Of a stretch of DNA of 59,564 nt, positions 1 through 29,584 are shown in pieces. The position numbers and the translations under genes were made by a program. The stretch's first letter is position 1, and the number at the start of each line of letters is the position of its first letter. Source of the DNA: Acidobacteriota bacterium. GTDB lineage: Bacteria > Acidobacteriota > UBA4820 > DSQY01. The notes beneath the pieces were generated by a model. That model was not told the DNA's origin, made no database searches, and saw only the letters and a list, made by a program, of their open reading frames with translations. The stretch is from NCBI GenBank assembly GCA_037440125.1, contig JBBIUU010000008.1, forward strand, positions 1 to 59,564, read 5' to 3'.

Positions 1-3000
1 CCCGGAACTCCTGCTCCAGGACCTCGATCTTGCGCTTGGTGCGCTCCTCGATCTCGCCGATGCGCCGCTTCTCGTCCTTGAACTTGGCCTGGATCTGGAT
101 CTTCGGCAGGGCCTCGGCGCGGATGGAGGACAGCGCCTGCGCCGTGAGCTCCTCGCCCTTGTCGAGCAGCTCCTCGCCCGTGATGTCGTCGTAGAGCTGG
201 GCGGCGGTGACCGTGCCGACGAGGAGGTCCGTGATCTTCTTCCGGTTCTCCTCGCGGAGGATCCGGATCTGGTCACGGAGGTTCTTGTCCATGCGGTCCA
301 CGTACTCCTGCTCGATGGACTTGGTGCGCTCGTCCTTCTCGCCGCCGCGGCGCGTGAAGATCTTTACGTCCACGACCACGCCGGAGATGCCGGGTGGGCA
401 CCGCAGGGAGGCGTCGCGGTACTCGGCCGACTTCTCGCCGAAGATGGCGCGCAGGAGCTTCTCCTCGGGGGTCATCTGGGTCTCGCCCTTGGGCGTGACC
501 TTGCCCACGAGGATGTCGCCTGGCTTGACGTGGGCGCCGATGCGGATGATGCCGCTCTCGTCCAGGTCGCGGAGGTAGGACTCGGAGATGTTCGGGATGT
601 CCCTGGTGATCTCCTCCTTGCCCAGCTTCGTGTCGCGGGCCTCGATCTCCATCTCTTCGATGTGAATCGAGGTGTAGACGTCCTCCTTGACGAGCTTCTC
701 GCTCAGGAGGATGGCGTCCTCGTAGTTGTAGCCGCGCCAGGGCATGAAGGCCACCAGCACGTTGCGCCCGAGGGCGAGCTCGCCGCCGTCGGTGCAGGGC
801 CCGTCCGCGAGGACGTCGCCGCCGTTGACGCGCTGGCCGACCTTCACGATGGGCTTCTGGTTGATGCACGTGTTCTGGTTGGAGCGCTGGAACTTGGTGA
901 GCGGGTAGACGTCGGCGCCGAAGTCGAAGGCCTCCTGGCCCTCCTCGCCGCCGCCCACGCGCACGATGATGCGGTTGGCGTCCACCAGGTCGACGATGCC
1001 GCCGCGCTTGCAGACCATGGTGGACTCGGAGTCCTTGCCCACCACCAGCTCCATGCCCGTGCCCACGACGGGGGCCTCGGGGCGCAGGAGCGGCACGGCC
1101 TGGCGCTGCATGTTGGAGCCCATCAGCGCGCGGTTCGCGTCGTCGTGCTCCAGGAACGGGATGAGCGCCGCCGCGATGGAGACGAGCTGCTTGGGGTTGA
1201 CGTCGATGTACTCGATGGTCTCGCGCTGGGAGAGGATGAACTCGCCCGCCTTGCGGCACTGGACCTTGTCGTTGACCATGTAGCCCCGCTCGTCGAGCTG
1301 GGCGTTGGCCTGGGCGATGATGTACCGGTCCTCCTCCCAGGCGGTCAGGTAGAAGGCCGCGGGAGTGGCGCGGGGCACCTTCTTGCGGGCCTTCTTGCAG
1401 CGCGCGATCTCGGCTTTGAAGTCCTCCTCCACCACCACGTCGCCGAGGGCGAACCGGCTCTCGCCGGGGTACGTGATGCTGTAGTGGTTCAGGACGCGGC
1501 CGTTCTCGACCTTCTTGTACGGCGACTCGATGAAGCCGTACTCGTTGATCCGCGCGTAGGTGGAGAGCGAGCTGATGAGGCCGATGTTCGGGCCCTCGGG
1601 CGTCTCGATGGGGCAGAGGCGGCCGTAGTGGCTCGTGTGGACGTCACGGACCTCAAACCCGGCGCGCTCGCGGCTCAGGCCGCCGGGGCCCAGGGCGCTC
1701 AGGCGGCGCTTGTGCGTGATCTCGGAGAGGGGGTTCGTCTGGTCCATGAACTGCGACAGCTGGCTGGACCCGAAGAACTCGAGGATGGAGGCCACCACGG
1801 GCTTGGCGTTGAGGAGGTCGCGGGGCATGGCCGTCGCGAGGTTGTGGTAGACGCTCATCTTCTCCTTGGACGCGCGCTCCATGCGGGCCAGGCCGATGCG
1901 GATCTGGTTCTCGAGGAGTTCGCCCACGGAGCGGACGCGGCGGTTACCGAGGTGGTCGATGTCGTCCAGGGCCGTCGGGTTCGTGGGCAGCTTGAGGAGG
2001 TGCTCCACGATCTCGCAGTAGTCCTCGAGGGTGAGCGTGCGGCGGCGGTCCAGCTCCTCCGTGAGCTGCTTCTTGCCCAGGGAGCGGAAGTCCTGCGGGT
2101 GCATCTTCGTGAGGAACTTGAGCGCGCCCACGCGGGAGAAGTCGTAGCGCTTGTCGTCGAAGAACATGAGGTTGAAGAAGTTCTTCGCGCCCTCGGGGGT
2201 GACCGGGTCGCCCGGGCGGACCTTGCGGAAGAAGTCCAGGTAGGCGTCCTCCTGGTTCTTGCACACGTCCCGGGTGATGGTCTCGAGGAGGGACACGCCG
2301 ATGTCGGTGGCCTTGGGCAGGATCACCTCGAGGGAGGTGACGCCGGCCTTGGCCATCTCGAAGACCCTGGCGAAGTCGATGGTCTGCGCGGCCTCGGCGA
2401 GGACGTCGCCGGTCTCGGGGTCCACCACGTCCTTGAAGGCGTAGATGTCCGTGGGCTCGCTGTGGTCGATGAGGACGCTCTCGACGCCCATCTTCTTCAG
2501 GCGCGCGATCTGGCTGCGGCGGATCTTCTTGCCGGCCTCCACCACCGCCTCCCGGCCGTCCTTGACGGTCTGGGCGGCGCTGAAGAGGTGGAGGCGGTCC
2601 GACACCGCCATCAGGATCTTGTCGTCCTTGACCTTGAAGGTGTCCACGGGGTAGAAGCGGCTGAGCAGGGCGCTGTTCTCACCCAGGCCCAGGGCGCGGA
2701 GGAACACGGTCGCCGGGAAGCGGCGCTTGCGGTCGATGCGGACGTGCAGGAGGCCCTTGGCGTCCAGCTCGAGCTCGACCCACGAGCCGCGCGCGGGGAT
2801 GATCTTGGACACCCACTCGGTGCGGTTCTCGTTGGTCTGGAAGAACACTCCCGGGGAGCGGTGGAGCTGGCTCACGACCACGCGCTCGGTGCCGTTGATG
2901 ATGAAGGTCCCCTTGTCGGTCATGAGGGGCATGTTGCCGAAGAAGACCTCCTCCTCCTTGATGTCCAGGACCGAGGGCTGGCCGCCCGCGTCCTTCTGGT

Positions 3001-3509
3001 AGACCTCGAGGCGGACCCTGATCTTCAGCGGCACGCCGAAGGTCATCCCGCGCTCCTGGCACTCGTCCACGCCGGCGTGGACGCGGAGGTTCACGACGTC
3101 GTCGCAGTGCGGGCACTTGGGCAGGTCGAGCTTCTGGATCTGTCCGCAGTGCTGGCACTGCACCTCCCGGACGTGGGTGTCCAGGACGATGACGCGGCCC
3201 TTGCAGTGGGAGCAGGTCTGCCGCAGGTGCTCCAGGCCTTTGACGAAGCCGCACCGGCACTGCCAGTCCCCGAGCGAGTAGTCCACGAAGTGGAGCGCGC
3301 ACTCCCCACGGAAGTCCTTGATGGGGAACACGGAGCGGAAGGCCTCCTGGAGGCCCACGTTCTCGCGCTCCTCGGGAAGGAGCTCCATCTGCAGGAACCG
3401 GCGGTAGGACTCGCGCTGCAGGTCCAGCAGGTTGGGGATGGGAATGGTGGTTTCGATGCGCGAGAACTCGAGCCTCTCTCGCGTCCCGACATCTATGGTC
3501 TTGGGCATC
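1..3509 (-). CDS. rpoB: DNA-directed RNA polymerase beta subunit, about the first 1,169 codons; the 3' end runs off the left edge of the window
   Basis: Absent from the ORF track because no stop codon lies in the window. Hand translation from the ATG at 3509 gives [39 protein letters not shown]... It contains the hallmark motifs [19 protein letters not shown] and [39 protein letters not shown]. It lies downstream of rplL, as in the canonical operon. Confidence 0.95.
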
Positions 3510-3675
3510 GGGCCATCTCCTCAAGATCCCTGATCAAGACTCGCGTCCGGTAAGAAGGGCCGCCTTGGGGTCACGGGCTGCCGGCATCGTGGGGGATCTG
3601 CCGCCCGGCCTCCGGATCGCTCTCTCAGCTCGTCAGCCCCGCCCTTCGGCCCCTCGGGGGCCGGCGGCGGGGAGC

Positions 3676-3724
3676 GAGAAGGAAAAGGCACACGGGCAGG
3701 GTACGCCGGATGCGCCCTGCCCTG
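3676..3724 (-). terminator. rplL-rpoB intergenic hairpin followed by a T-rich tract (attenuator/terminator-like)
   Basis: On the minus strand, GGGCAGGG (loop of about 13 nt) CCCTGCCC is followed by GTGTGCCTTTTCCTTCTC. The position matches the known rplL-rpoB attenuator of other bacteria. Confidence 0.5.
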
Positions 3725-3747
3725 AGGTGCCGAAACGACCAGACGAG

Positions 3748-4125
3748 CTACTTGATCTCGACAGTCGCGCCCTTCTCCTCGAACTTCTTCTTGATGGACT
3801 CGGCCTCGTCCTTGCTGACGGCCTCCTTGAGGGTCTTGGGAGCGCCTTCGACCAGGTCCTTGGCTTCCTTGAGGCCGAGGCTGGTGATCTCGCGGACCAC
3901 CTTGATGACCTCGATCTTCTTGTCGCCGGCGGCCTTGAGGATGACGTCGAACTCGGTCTTCTCCTCGGCCGGGGCGGCGGCGGCGGCGGGGCCGGCCGCG
4001 ACCATCACGGGGGCGGCGGCGGCGGCGGAGACGCCCCACTTCTCTTCAAGCATCTTGCTGAGCTGGGCAGCTTCGAGGACGGAAAGGGCGCTCAGCTGGT
4101 CGACGATCGCATTCAGGTCAGCCAT
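3748..4125 (-). CDS. rplL: 50S ribosomal protein L7/L12
   Basis: 125-aa [25 protein letters not shown]...[42 protein letters not shown] with an Ala/Pro hinge. Synteny supports the call. Confidence 0.97.
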
Positions 4126-23908: not shown

Positions 23909-24865
23909 CAGATACTTCGGATTCACCCGGACGTAGTTCTGGGCCTTCAGTTCCGCGATGTACTCTTTGTAGGCCGCCTGGAACTTTTCCTCCTTGATGG
24001 CCTGGATGACGGCCTCGCGGGCCTTGTCGAGGGAGGGCACGTCGGGGGTCTTCTTCTCCTCCACGCGGAAGATGTACCAGCCGGCGGAGGTGGCGATGGG
24101 GTCGGTCACGCCCCCGACTTGGAGGGAGGTCACGGCATGGGCGATGTCGGGGCTCAGCTCGCTGACGTTGAACCACCCGGCCTCGCCCTTGTTGTTCTTG
24201 GAGAAGGCCTCGGAGTACTGCGCCGCGAGGTCGCCGAAGGTCTTGCCCGCGGCCATCTCCTTCTTGACCTGCGCCGCGAGCGCCGCGGCGTCCTCCTGCG
24301 TGTGCCCCTTCTTGAGGACGAGGATCTCCTGGAGCTGGACCTGCGGCTTTCCGGAGAGGTCGCCCTTGTGCTTCTCGTAGAAGGCGTTGATCTCGTCGGT
24401 GCTCACGCTGATCCGGGAGCGGATCTCGCGGCTCTTCATGAACTCGGGCACGTAGATGAGGAGGACCTGCTTGCGGAACTCGTCCATGGTCATGCCCTCG
24501 CCGGCGAGGGCCTTGGCCAGGTCGTCCTTGGTGTTGAGCTTGTTCTCCTTCATGAAGTTCTCGATCTGCCCGTCCACGATGGCGTCGACCTGGTAGATCT
24601 GCTTCGCCTTCTCCACGAGGAGGAGCTCGTCCTCCATCTGCTCCAGGAGGAACTGGGGGACCTGCTGGAGGCGCTGCTCGATGTCGGGGCCCTTGTATTC
24701 GCGGCGCATGCCGTCCTGGGTGTTCTTCAGGCGCTTGTCGAACTCGGACTTCGTCACCACGGCGTCGTTCACCTTGATGACGATCTCATCCACGATCTCG
24801 GCCCTGAGGCTCTGGACCGGGGCCGCCATGACGATCGCGAGACTGAGGAAAACCAACCGCTTCAT
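23906..24865 (-). CDS. Periplasmic chaperone / peptidyl-prolyl isomerase, SurA-like (SurA_N plus parvulin domain)
   Basis: 319 aa. Signal peptide MKRLVFLSLAIVMAAPVQSLRA. Parvulin-like segment GEAGWFNVSELSPDIAHAVTSLQVGGVTDPIATSAGWYIFRVEEKK. Confidence 0.85.
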   Translation of the reverse strand: MKRLVFLSLAIVMAAPVQSLRAEIVDEIVIKVNDAVVTKSEFDKRLKNTQDGMRREYKGPDIEQRLQQVPQFLLEQMEDELLLVEKAKQIYQVDAIVDGQIENFMKENKLNTKDDLAKALAGEGMTMDEFRKQVLLIYVPEFMKSREIRSRISVSTDEINAFYEKHKGDLSGKPQVQLQEILVLKKGHTQEDAAALAAQVKKEMAAGKTFGDLAAQYSEAFSKNNKGEAGWFNVSELSPDIAHAVTSLQVGGVTDPIATSAGWYIFRVEEKKTPDVPSLDKAREAVIQAIKEEKFQAAYKEYIAELKAQNYVRVNPKYL

Positions 24866-25719
24866 GGGGACTCCTTCTGGTAATCAAAGGGTAGTTTAGA
24901 CGAAAAGACCACCGTGCGGAAGCGTCCCCTCAGCTTCGCCAGGTAGGCCTCCCGGAGCCGCTGCCCCTCCTCGTCGGTGAGGCGGAGCCGGATCTCCGGC
25001 GCCGCGTCCTCGAGCGGCTCGGCGTAGGTCTTGTACCGGCCCTCGAGGTAGAGGATCTGGTAGGCGCTGTCGGTGACGCGGATGGGCGCGGTGGCCGCCC
25101 CCGGGGGCGTCTTCTCGAGGACGGGCCGGAGGTAGTCCGGCAGCTCCTCGTACTGGAAGTACTGGGGCGCGCCCCGCCGGGGCGAGAGGGAGTAGAGGCG
25201 CGCCACGTCCACGAAGGAGTGGCCCCTCCTGAGGAGCTTCTCCGCGTCGTCGGCCTGCGTGGGGCCCGGGAGGAGCATCTCGCGCACGAGGACGCCGGGG
25301 CCCCGCGCGAACTCGTCGGCGTGGTCGCGGTAATAGGCCTCCACCTGCTCGGGCCCCACCTCCACCTTGGCGTAGACACGTTCCTGGAGGGCCGTCTCCG
25401 CGGCCGCCTCACGGGCCTTGGGGTCCGAGAGGGCGCCCAGGGGCTCGGGTGCCGCGGCGCCGCCGGGGGCCGGCGAGAGGTCGTTGAGGACGAGCACCTG
25501 GTCCACGAGGTCGTCCCATACCCGGCTCTTCACCCACGGGTCCTCGGAGGCTCCGGCCTGGCCGTAGGCGAGGGCCCGATTCAGGTCCGTCGTCGTGAGC
25601 GTGAAGCGTCCCACCACGGCGAGGACGTCGGGGGTGCCCTGCAGGCGCGCCACGGGGTCGCGCCGGCACGAGGCCGCCGCGAGGACGAGCAGGACCGCCG
25701 CCGCGAGCGCGCGCCTCAC
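24862..25719 (-). CDS. Lipoprotein, SurA/PpiC-like (degenerate parvulin-type) protein
   Basis: GTG at 25719 overlaps the mfd stop as GTGA. The product starts (V)[17 protein letters not shown], a lipobox-like signal. The rest resembles SurA/PpiD-type chaperones. It is the in-frame tail of track ORF 24862..28890. Confidence 0.65.
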   Translation of the reverse strand: MRRALAAAVLLVLAAASCRRDPVARLQGTPDVLAVVGRFTLTTTDLNRALAYGQAGASEDPWVKSRVWDDLVDQVLVLNDLSPAPGGAAAPEPLGALSDPKAREAAAETALQERVYAKVEVGPEQVEAYYRDHADEFARGPGVLVREMLLPGPTQADDAEKLLRRGHSFVDVARLYSLSPRRGAPQYFQYEELPDYLRPVLEKTPPGAATAPIRVTDSAYQILYLEGRYKTYAEPLEDAAPEIRLRLTDEEGQRLREAYLAKLRGRFRTVVFSSKLPFDYQKESP

Positions 25720-28700
25720 GCGTGCACCTCCGACGGCGCGGCCGCGTCGAGCACCCTGCCGAAGAGGTGCAGGGGGTCCTCCCCGCGCTCGAGGCCCATC
25801 TCGAGGGAGCCGCTCGGCGAGAGGTGCACGCCCTTCCTCGCGGACAGGAACCGCACGAGCCCCGCCGTGTCTAGGGGCGCCTCGGGGTCGAAGGTGAGGA
25901 CGAGCCGGTCGCCCTTGCGCGCCGCGCTCCGGATGGCGTGGCGCTCCGCGCGCAGCCGGAGCCGGACCGCGTCGAGCATGCGCGACACCACGGACGGCGC
26001 GGGACCGAAGCGGTCCGAGAGGTCCGCCGCGATGCGCGCCACGTCCTGGGCGTCGCCCGCGAGGGAGAGCTCCCGGTAGAGCGCGAGGCGCTGGTTCTGG
26101 TCCTCGATGTAGTCCTCGGGCACGGAGAGGTCGAGCGCGAGGTTCATCTCGCAGCGCACCGGGGCGAGCGCCGTCTCGCCCTTGGCCTCCGCCACGGCCT
26201 CCTCCAGGAGGCGCAGGTAGAGGTCGAAGCCCACGGCCTCGATGTGGCCCGACTGCTCGGCGCCGAGGAGGTTCCCCGCGCCGCGCAGCTCCAGGTCCAC
26301 GGCGGCCACGCGGAAGCCCGCGCCGAGCTCGGAGAACTCCTGCAGGGTCGCGAGGCGCTTCTCCGCGTCGGGGCGCAGGACCATCCCCTCGGGCACGAGG
26401 AGGTAGGCGTAGGCGGGCACGTCGGAGCGGCCGATGCGGCCCCTCAGCTGGTAGAGCTGGCACAGGCCGAAGACGTGGGCGTTGTTCACGACGAGGGTGT
26501 TGGCCCTCGGCAGGTCCACGCCGTTCTCGATGATCGTCGTGCACACGAGCACGTCGTAGTGCCCGTGGAAGAAGGCGAGCATGACCTCCTCGAGGGCGCG
26601 CTCCCCCATCTGCCCGTGGGCGATGGTGACGCGGGCCTCGGGGACCCACTCCTGGATGCGGCGCGCCGCGGCCGCGATGGTCTCCACCTGGTTGTGCACG
26701 TAGTAGACCTGCCCGCCGCGCCCGAGCTCGCGCCGGACGGCGGACTGCACGAGCTCCTTGTCGAACTCGTGCAGGGTGGTCTGGATGGCCAGGCGGTCCT
26801 TGGGCGGCGTCTGGATGAGCGACATGTCGAGGATGCCGCTCAGGCCCATCTGGAGGGTCCTCGGGATGGGCGTGGCCGTGAGCGTGAGCACGTCCACGTG
26901 GGTCTTGAGGGCCTTGATCTTCTCCTTGTGCGTGACGCCGAAGCGCTGCTCCTCGTCCACCACCAGGAGGCCGAGGTTGGGGAGCTTCACGTCCTTCGAG
27001 AGGAGGCGGTGCGTGCCGATGAGGACGTCTACCTTGCCGGCGTTCGCCTCCGCCACCACCGTCTTCTGGTCCTTCGCCGAGACGAAGCGCGACAGCATCC
27101 TCACGGTGACGGGGAAGGGCGCGAACCGCTCGGCGAAGCGCTCCTCGTGCTGGAGCGCGAGGACGGTCGTCGGGCACAGGACCATCACCTGCCGTCCGTC
27201 CTGCACGGCCTTGAAGGCGGCGCGCATGGCCACCTCGGTCTTGCCGAAGCCCACGTCTCCGCACACGAGGCGGTCCATGGGACGGGGCGACTGCATGTCC
27301 TTCTTGATCTCCTCCACGGCGCGGCCCTGGTCGGGCGTCAGGTCGAAGGGGAACTGCCCTTCGAACTCCTCCTGCCACGCGGTGTCGGAGCCGTAGGTCC
27401 AGCCCTCCACGGTGCGCCGCCTCGCGTAGAGCTTGAGGAGGTCGTCGGCGATCTCGCGCACGGCCTTGCGCACCTTGTCCTTGGCCTTCTTCCACGCGGG
27501 GCCGCCGAGGCGGTCGAGGGGCGGGATGACGCCCTCGGGCCCCACGTACTTCTGCACGAGGTCCATCCGCTGGACGGGCACCAGGAGGCGCCCGCCGCCC
27601 GCGTAGAGGAGGCTGAGGTAGTCCTCGCGCAGGCCCTCGCGGACGAGGGTCTCGATGCCCTGGTAGAGGCCCACGCCGTGGTCCACGTGAACCACGGGCT
27701 GGCCGGGCTTGAGGTCCCGGAGGCCCGAGAAGAAGGCCTCGCGGTGCTGGACGCGCGCCTCGGGGAGCGCCGCCCGGCCGCGCCCGAAGAGCTCGCGCTC
27801 GGTGACGGCGAGCCAGCGCGCCGCGGGGAAGACCACGCCCTCCTCGGCGGGCACGAGGGCGGCGTAGAAGCCCGGCGGCAGCTCGCCGCCCGGCGGGGGC
27901 TCGCGCAGGAGGTCGAAGCCCTCGGCCTTGGCCATCTCGGCGAGGCGGTCGAGCGTGCCCTGCCCCTGGAGGAGCGCCACGCAGCGGAATCCGGCCTCCA
28001 CGCGGTCGCGGATGTACCCGAGGAACTTGTAGGGCTCGCCGGGAAAGACCGGCGGGCGCTCGCTCGCGGCGGAGGCGCCCTCGGCGGATGCGGCCCGCAC
28101 GGTGCGCGGGTCCGCCACGAGGGCCTGCACCTCGGCGGCCCTCAGGAAGAGCTTCTCGGGCGCGAGGAAGGCGGGGCGGCGGTGGGTCCGGTGGCTCTCG
28201 TTCCACTGGTCGACGCGCGCCTTCGCCTGCTGGACGCACGCCTCGGGCTCCACGGCGAACCACGCCGCGCCCCCGAGGAACTCCTGCAGGCCGGCGAAGA
28301 ACTCCCGGTCCTGGCGGATCTCCGTGTCGTAGGTCGGGTACGCGCCCACCTGCGAGAGGCCCTCGAGGCGGATGTCCCCGAACTCTCCCTCCCCCCCGAG
28401 CACGGCCCTCAGGCGCGCCTGGAGGCCCTCGTCGCGGATGGCCTCGGACAGGGGCGGGACGAGCACGGGGCGGCCCACGGGGCCGAGGGAGTGCTGGGTC
28501 GAGGGGTCGAAGAAGCGCACCGACTCCACGTCGTCGCCGAAGAGCTCGAGGCGGACGGGCAGGGTCTCGGTGGGCGAGAAGGCGTCGATGACGCCGCCGC
28601 GGAAGGAGGCCTCGCCGGGCTCGCCCACGAGGTCCACCTGGCGGTACCCGAGCTTCCACAGCGAGGCCCGGAAGGCCCGGCGGTCGAGCTGGGACGCCTC

Positions 28701-29108
28701 CTCGACCTGGAGGAGGTGGCGCGTCCACCAGCCGCGCCGCGGCACCCGCCACAGGAGCGACTCGGCCGAGCAGAGGACCGCGGGGCGCGGGGAGAGCGCG
28801 GCCACGGCGAGGGCCTGGGCGCGCTCCAGGAGGATGCCCGGGTGGTTGGGCAGGCCCTCGTAGGGGTCGGCGTCGGGCGCTGGGAGGCACGCGGGGGCGC
28901 CGCGGTCGCCCAGGACGGCGCGGAGGAAGGCGTGCACCTTCTTCGCCGCCGCCTCCGTGGGGACGAGCACCGCCACGGCGCCCTGCCGCTCCGCGAGGTG
29001 CGCCGCGAGGGCGTAGGGCAGGCCTCCGCCGCGGGCCGAGGCGAGGCCCTCGGCGCCGCCGAGCGCGGCGTCGAGCTCGGCGAGGAACCTCCCGAGCACC
29101 GGGTTCAC
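25716..29108 (-). CDS. mfd: Transcription-repair coupling factor
   Basis: GTG at 29108 overlaps the rfaE-II stop. 1130 aa with helicase motifs ([34 protein letters not shown]) and a TRG region. Confidence 0.93.
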
Positions 29109-29584
29109 CCTCCGCCCCCGATCCTGCGCAGGATGCCGCTCGTGGAGCGACCCGGGACCACCGGGATCGTCGTGACGAGGCCGCCGCGGGCCTCCACGAC
29201 GTCCCGCCCCACGATGGCGTCGAGGGCCCAGTCGCCGCCCTTCACCAGGACGTCGGGCTCCACCGCCTCGATGACGCGCAGGGGCGTGTCCTCCGCGAAG
29301 AGGACCACGGCGTCCACGCAGGCCAACGCGGCGAGGATCTCGGCCCGCTCGCCCTCGGGCGTCACGGGACGCGAGGGCCCCTTGAGACGCCGCACGCTGT
29401 CGTCGTCGTTGAGGCCCACCACGAGCCGGTCGCCCAGGCCCCTCGCCGCGTTGAGGTAGCGCACGTGCCCCGCGTGCAGGAGGTCGAAGCACCCGTTCGT
29501 GAAGACCACGCGCTCCCCCGCCGAGCGCCACGCCTCGCGCAGCGCCCGCAGCTCGGGCCAGGTGAGGGCTCCGGCGGGGCTCAT
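29105..29584 (-). CDS. D-glycero-beta-D-manno-heptose-1-phosphate adenylyltransferase (RfaE domain II-type cytidylyltransferase)
   Basis: 159 aa, ...[48 protein letters not shown]... Confidence 0.88.

Follow-up and report, generated by a model that had tools for sequence, protein, structure and literature searches.

Lineage-specific inserts in RNA polymerase (RNAP), such as SI1, SI3 and the actinobacterial β′ insert, have repeatedly proved to be regulatory handles. The β-i4/SI1, β-i9/SI2, β-i11 and BEAN domains are in-frame, lineage-restricted surface insertions of a large RNAP subunit (PMC11515920), and the RpoB insertion of an acidobacterium described here is likewise in frame, lineage-restricted and probably at the surface. 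A 2024 survey of β and β′ insertions gives five sites, none of them at this position, and leaves zinc unmentioned (PMC11515920), whereas the present insertion lies in the N-terminal hairpin of β-uD1 and is predicted to be a Cys-rich two-metal module, with no BEAN hallmark (TGD or TGE) in residues 82-142. Acidobacteria are entered in the Lane and Darst catalogue for β-i4, β-i9 and β-i11, according to Opalka et al. 2010 (PMC2939025). The insert is ordinary in kind, being a lineage-specific RNAP insertion, and unusual in its predicted fold and its site.

Known zinc modules provide further points of comparison. In the zinc-binding domain (ZBD) at the N-terminus of β′, four Cys (C70, C72, C85 and C88 in E. 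coli) bind one zinc. The insert shares with it the arrangement D-W-E-C-x-C-G ... K ... H ... C-x-x-C-G, but lies in the other subunit, has four extra Cys and probably pairs them differently (the CxC with the last CxxC); the ZBD's basic loop is not conserved, Leu, Gly and Glu standing there instead (consensus G-x-L-K-G-L-E-H-L-R). As in classical zinc ribbons (NZF/RanBP2 fingers, LysW, ZitP, the RBR IBR/RING2 halves and the TFIIS/Rpb9 type), insert residues 96-126 are predicted to form two knuckles, each in a β-hairpin, and these structures align to the insert model with an rmsd of 1.9-2.8 Å over 29-43 residues. Unlike them, the ribbon of the insert appears to be nested in a second Cys4 site and sits inside a large enzyme. 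The connective peptide of MetRS is also an inserted module, with an inner knuckle pair nested inside an outer pair, and three MetRS chains align to the whole model (52-62 residues); however, these are very weak matches (Z 2.3-2.5, rmsd 6.5-6.8 Å), an architectural analogy with no sequence relation. A further analogy is offered by Rpb12/RpoP and Rpb10/RpoN of archaeal and eukaryotic RNAPs, zinc-stabilised mini-domains that brace the large subunits; these are separate polypeptides, and no sequence or fold match between them and the insert was detected.

The window analysed covers the opening 59.5 kb of contig C8, in a genome of 3.2 Mb and 194 contigs. The features of rpoB and its insertion are as follows.

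2 to 3508, minus strand: rpoB (RNAP β), N-terminal 1169 codons, recognised from the translation and Pfam Rpb2 domains
3083 to 3265, minus strand: lineage-specific insertion, residues 82-142, seen as a gap against PDB chains, E. coli and insert-less Acidobacteriota
3215 to 3259, minus strand: outer N-terminal element, residues 84-98 (CxCG-x-LKGLEHLR), similar to the β′ ZBD and the first half of a putative clasp
3116 to 3214, minus strand: predicted inner zinc ribbon, residues 99-131 (C99, C102, C118, C121), from the AlphaFold2 (AF2) model, fold matches and natural variants
3083 to 3115, minus strand: outer C-terminal element, residues 132-142 (C132-xx-C135 and a return strand), the second half of the putative clasp

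The stop-free translation (P0001, 1169 aa) contains Pfam Rpb2 domains 1, 2, 3, 45 and 6. Its C-terminus is cut off by the contig start; the full-length RpoB of relatives has 1435-1443 aa. Upstream on the same strand lie the genes for L10, L1, L11, NusG and EF-Tu, and an ORF at 3521-4039, in the position expected for L7/L12, has no Pfam match. The insert profile found no β′ ZBD among all contigs of the source genome (G000), and with rpoB cut at the contig end the start of rpoC is therefore seemingly absent from the assembly. Opposite-strand shadow ORFs that are not genes are widespread, one of 1183 aa (2 to 3553, plus strand) facing rpoB itself; long ones are expected because the genome is G+C-rich.

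The sequence-only reading had placed an insert of about 60 residues at 3066-3266, which corresponds to residues 82-147. The location stands, as a gap appears here against every solved β subunit matched. The extent was corrected to 3083-3265, for residues 143-148, directly before ECQ, belong to the core and are equivalent to PVFDVQ of E. coli. All alignments to β chains in the PDB (E. coli, Pseudomonas, Thermus and others) that take in the N-terminus end at residues 79-81 and restart at 146-148, joining E. coli residue 76 to 82. The flanks align to all PDB β chains matched, and residues 82-145 are covered by no PDB chain among the 54 distinct solved β sequences matched. Depending on whether E. 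coli or insert-less Acidobacteriota serve as the partner, the insertion starts at residue 82 or 84, ends at 141 or 142 and is 59-61 residues long. It runs W82, C84-x-C86, C99-xx-C102, C118-xx-C121 and C132-xx-C135 (the eight Cys are called C1 to C8 below), up to the core E149-C150-Q. A DNA pattern of the W and eight Cys at exact spacing matched the window once, at 3104-3265, and had no match in 100 shuffles. Misassembly, which the sequence-only reading had named as a risk, is ruled out by the recurrence of this in-frame block in hundreds of independent assemblies.

Those eight Cys (one CxC and three CxxC), counted from the start as enough for two Cys4 sites, are invariant in 23 diverse sequences whose 72-column block is free of indels. 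In relatives ranging from the same genus to the same phylum, G80, W82, G91 and G122 are invariant as well. All eight Cys are kept in 155 of 161 database proteins spanning the block; of the six exceptions, at least four are visibly frameshifted calls. The conservation in relatives that had been proposed as a check was borne out. Mean pairwise identity across the phylum is 62-67% for residues 84-98 and 64-67% for the flanking core, against 32-40% for the inner ribbon.

Profile A1, built from the block, found matches in 369 of 401 Acidobacteriota genomes, a set that includes three unpublished genomes (G052, G170 and G076) used for no other claim. In 25 of the 369 the match lay only at E 1e-5 to 1e-3. 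The β′ ZBD alone scores 6.7e-5 to 6.3e-4 with this profile, at about the level of these weak matches, and for this reason they were not counted and the number of carriers was lowered to approximately 344 of 401 genomes (86%, E ≤ 1.6e-8). A closer inspection of three genomes without a match revealed that in all three the N-terminus of rpoB is missing from the assembly; to read every such genome as lacking the insert would be wrong for these three. In a collection of 5.8 billion proteins more than 2278 matched at E ≤ 1e-6, and those that are named are Acidobacteriota or Thermoanaerobaculia, with the exception of one labelled 'Rubrobacter sp.' on a 1.2-kb contig. The exact-spacing pattern matched at least 120 GTDB species representatives, the named matches including Terriglobia (the cultured Bryocella elongata DSM 22489, Granulicella, Solibacter and Bryobacter) as well as Blastocatellia, Vicinamibacteria, Holophagae, Thermoanaerobaculia and Aminicenantia. 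Three pattern matches bear the labels Clostridia, Eubacteriales and Eisenbacteria, which were rejected, the RpoB being of acidobacterial type. A profile search of 1.84 billion representatives found no stand-alone homologue, returning RpoB fragments and repetitive CxxC proteins, the latter treated as composition-driven.

The insertion is therefore a lineage-specific in-frame addition to RpoB that is conserved and near-universal in Acidobacteriota, and it is not peculiar to the source genome. The sequence-only reading had allowed that it might prove both common in the phylum and already described. Common it is, but a full-text literature search found no description; the Lane and Darst 2010 catalogue, beyond the reach of that search, may number the insert. 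In soil, Acidobacteriota rank among the most abundant bacteria, and the exact-spacing eight-Cys block provides a clean marker for the phylum.

RpoB without the insert was found in families f5, f14, f23, f30, f46 and f48. On an RpoB tree (686 columns, insert masked, rooted with E. coli) the insert-less rows require four state changes, and the loss in f48, which left remnants, is nested in a Vicinamibacterales group with 100% support whose other members carry the insert. The deepest branches (f7 and f9) carry it; the insert is therefore of early origin, with several later losses. Traces of the losses persist in some genomes. In two insert-less sequences (G040 and G110) pieces of the return strand survive, in G110 alongside C-G from the first motif. 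Partial decay takes several forms: G105 (L063) has a deletion of the inner segment but keeps C1, C2, C7 and C8; G042 and G074 (L060/L061) have substitutions at each of the four inner Cys with the outer four intact, and the inner Cys are present in P0074, a relative; G116 (L059) lacks C1 and C7 but has the inner four Cys. The outer C-terminal element is thus retained together with C84/C86 where the inner ribbon is lost. On the evidence of this tree the insert is ancient, was lost at least four separate times and appears to be dispensable. The repeated losses supply natural pairs with and without the insert for comparative biochemistry, and the half-decayed inserts (G105, G042, G074 and G116) would be useful as natural mutants for assigning the metal sites.

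AF2 modelled the block with a pLDDT of 88.6 alone and 92-95 within residues 1-269. In block numbering, the model runs through strand 3-6, C7-x-C9, a short helix at 15-18, strand 19-21, C22-xx-C25, strands 28-30 and 38-40, C41-xx-C44, strand 47-49, C55-xx-C58 and strand 63-66. Both middle knuckles are each predicted within a hairpin, the classical zinc-ribbon arrangement, and strands at residues 105-107, 115-117 and 124-126, with knuckle positions to suit, would fit a three-stranded zinc ribbon; the fold matches reach only Z 2.0-2.6. Foldseek against the PDB returned nothing at E ≤ 0.001 (E ≥ 0.47), and across 48,161 chains VIA-align gave a best Z of 2.6, with single-zinc ribbon matches at Z 2.0-2.6, so that neither search found a convincing relative among solved folds. 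The Npl4/TAB2 NZF, RanBP2 fingers, LysW, ZitP and RBR halves align to model residues 12-62, mostly to about 17-52, the part that holds the inner four Cys. The sequence-only reading had proposed comparing the insert alone with zinc-ribbon families. No Pfam family matched it at E ≤ 1. With the whole protein, Zn_ribbon_3 was found at E 0.23 (11.4 bits, cut-off 27), fitting C5-C8 weakly, and the ESM Atlas gave only generic double-zinc-ribbon and rubredoxin-like clusters with scores below 0.9.

The insert probably binds two zinc ions. Nested sites are favoured, with C84, C86, C132 and C135 as a predicted outer site and C99, C102, C118 and C121 as an inner one; two tandem ribbons fit less well. This pairing rests on the AF2 secondary structure, the weak fold matches and three natural variants, which are more simply read as having lost one whole site. 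The 'double Zn-ribbon' topology first proposed for the insert is accordingly probably wrong, these same lines of evidence favouring a clasped single ribbon. The G116 variant is compatible with either pairing, though sequential pairing would leave it with two three-ligand sites.

Two places in RpoB outside the insert bear on its surroundings.

3377 to 3379, minus strand: L44 of RpoB, the only residue outside the insert that clearly tracks its loss
2954 to 2962, minus strand: I183-K184-E185 of RpoB, read from the sequence

Co-variation was examined in 40 full RpoB-RpoC pairs (30 with the insert, 7 without and 3 variants). L44 is kept in 93% of insert-bearing RpoB and altered in three of the four independent loss lineages, and a Lys near RpoB residue 709 tracks loss weakly, being changed in at least three of the four. 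It is possible, as a weak inference, that L44 is a local packing partner of the insert. Across the 40 pairs, no second indel in RpoB or RpoC tracks the insert, and no column of RpoC tracks its loss. Co-evolution with another β or β′ indel was accordingly rejected, and since nothing else co-varies the module seems to be a self-contained one that packs locally. Net charge in the insert varies between -4 and +5 and is not conserved; together with the loss of the basic ZBD loop, this argues against a conserved nucleic-acid finger.

CarD and Mfd dock on β1. We take I183-K184-E185 to be the counterpart of E. coli β I117-K118-E119, presumably the contact of the Mfd/CarD RID on β1. Judged by the predicted succession of strands (70-79, then the insert, 158-171 and 179-194), the sheet would have the insertion site at one end and these residues at the other. 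A CarD_TRCF_RID match (68 bits) was found at 27543-27713 on the minus strand, inside a 1310-aa frame (25716-29531, minus strand) that is presumably Mfd. An overlapping 1342-aa frame (24862-28890, minus strand) has only a C-terminal PPIase (Rotamase_2) match, and gene calling here needs care. A second RID match (46 bits) lies on contig C106 of the source genome (5906-6070, minus strand) within an open frame as long as CarD/CdnL (176 aa). The source acidobacterium thus probably has CarD as well as the β1 insert, and the notion that the insert replaces CarD was rejected, matches of both the CarD-like and the Mfd type being present in the genome.

A likeness that the sequence-only reading did not mention is that of the first half of the insert to the β′ ZBD. 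In five of five relatives the β′ N-terminal ZBD, located about 4 kb downstream, is the best non-self match of the insert profile genome-wide. Over 31 columns hhalign aligned the two with 95.8% probability and E 7e-9, the CxC-x12-CxxC spacing being the same in both. The likeness exceeds the Cys spacing, because the score collapses when the ZBD columns are shuffled with the Cys fixed: 200 shuffles gave 12.7 ± 4.2 with a maximum of 29.6, and none reached the real score of 41.8. The first half of the insert would either descend from the β′ ZBD or have converged on it. This resemblance, the adjacency of rpoB and rpoC and the weak fit of Zn_ribbon_3 to C5-C8 would suit a transplanted ZBD followed by a second small ribbon, with Cys paired sequentially (C1-C4 and C5-C8) and the insert working like another ZBD at the β side of the cleft, in contact with upstream DNA, sigma or nascent RNA. 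As the four Cys of β′ hold one zinc, the likeness of C1-C4 does argue for sequential pairing and conflicts with the nested one. However, the variants lose C3-C6 as a set and retain C1, C2, C7 and C8, the structural neighbours put one ribbon on C3-C6, Leu, Gly and Glu have replaced the basic loop residues, charge varies, and no RpoC site co-varies with loss of the insert; we consider a transplant of this kind distinctly unlikely. A fuller version is a long shot: the module would have begun as a duplicate of the β′ ZBD moved into rpoB, and would act as a second zinc finger beside the upstream DNA path, on its protrusion side, tuning promoter opening through contact with promoter DNA, with sigma or with a factor specific to the phylum. 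If true, this would mean that a domain was duplicated from one subunit into another and has a regulatory role; the half-match to the β′ ZBD may exemplify domain exchange between the two largest RNAP subunits. It is highly improbable that the eight Cys bind iron in the manner of rubredoxin or serve as a redox or metal-availability switch on RNAP. The CxxCG and CPxC knuckles do resemble those of rubredoxin, and a rubredoxin-like cluster appears among the generic zinc-ribbon neighbours in a language-model search (0.85-0.88, below the level that counts), but Pfam, Foldseek against the PDB and VIA-align gave no significant match to any rubredoxin family, and sequence evidence for a redox role is absent. 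To our knowledge, moreover, all known Cys4 sites of RNAP bind zinc, which counts against iron.

The reading we favour, and hold as a whole with moderate confidence, is that of a self-contained, zinc-stabilised and dispensable module of β1 with a structural or docking role. It would be an ancient, Acidobacteriota-specific insertion in the N-terminal β-hairpin of the β1 (protrusion) domain, in which an outer Cys4 clasp (C84, C86, C132 and C135) ties the base of the insertion beside the host hairpin and the inner CxxC pairs (C99, C102, C118 and C121) form an ordinary zinc ribbon projecting from it, the clasp element being as conserved as the enzyme core and the ribbon variable. Such a surface module may brace the N-terminal region of β and perhaps offer a docking surface; it would stand outside catalysis, and would be neither a conserved nucleic-acid finger nor essential. 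Another account makes the insert a functionless decoration that is tolerated, and kept only since a folded zinc module could hardly be removed without harm to the host hairpin. At least four independent losses, clean or partial, with either site decaying in living lineages, the variable ribbon and the lack of a co-evolving partner in RpoB or RpoC all suit that account, but the fixed length and eight invariant Cys across phylum-level divergence do not, nor does a clasp element that is conserved like the RpoB core and unlike neutral sequence. We regard mere decoration as unlikely. The high conservation of the clasp, read from sequence comparison, would also fit a specific functional contact. With a two-metal module predicted on the protrusion, the domain bound by CarD and Mfd, this region is a target for the first structure of an acidobacterial RNAP.

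A resemblance of the insert to one in the neighbouring EF-Tu gene had also been pointed out. The likeness is confined to a generic CxC...CxxC pattern, and kinship was rejected, as even a threshold of E ≤ 1 gave the insert profile no match there. The EF-Tu in question (P0016; 7054-8247, minus strand) has a 13-residue C-x-C-x5-C-xx-C in place of a loop, with a net gain of five residues relative to solved EF-Tu. P0016 is a divergent EF-Tu paralogue in the classical tuf-nusG position; its G4 motif is SKAD, not NKCD, the switch-I 'RGITI' stretch is altered and 'GRGTVVTG' is changed. A second EF-Tu copy, split across the ends of contigs C37 and C42 and 60-63% identical, is free of the Cys motif and has NKCD.
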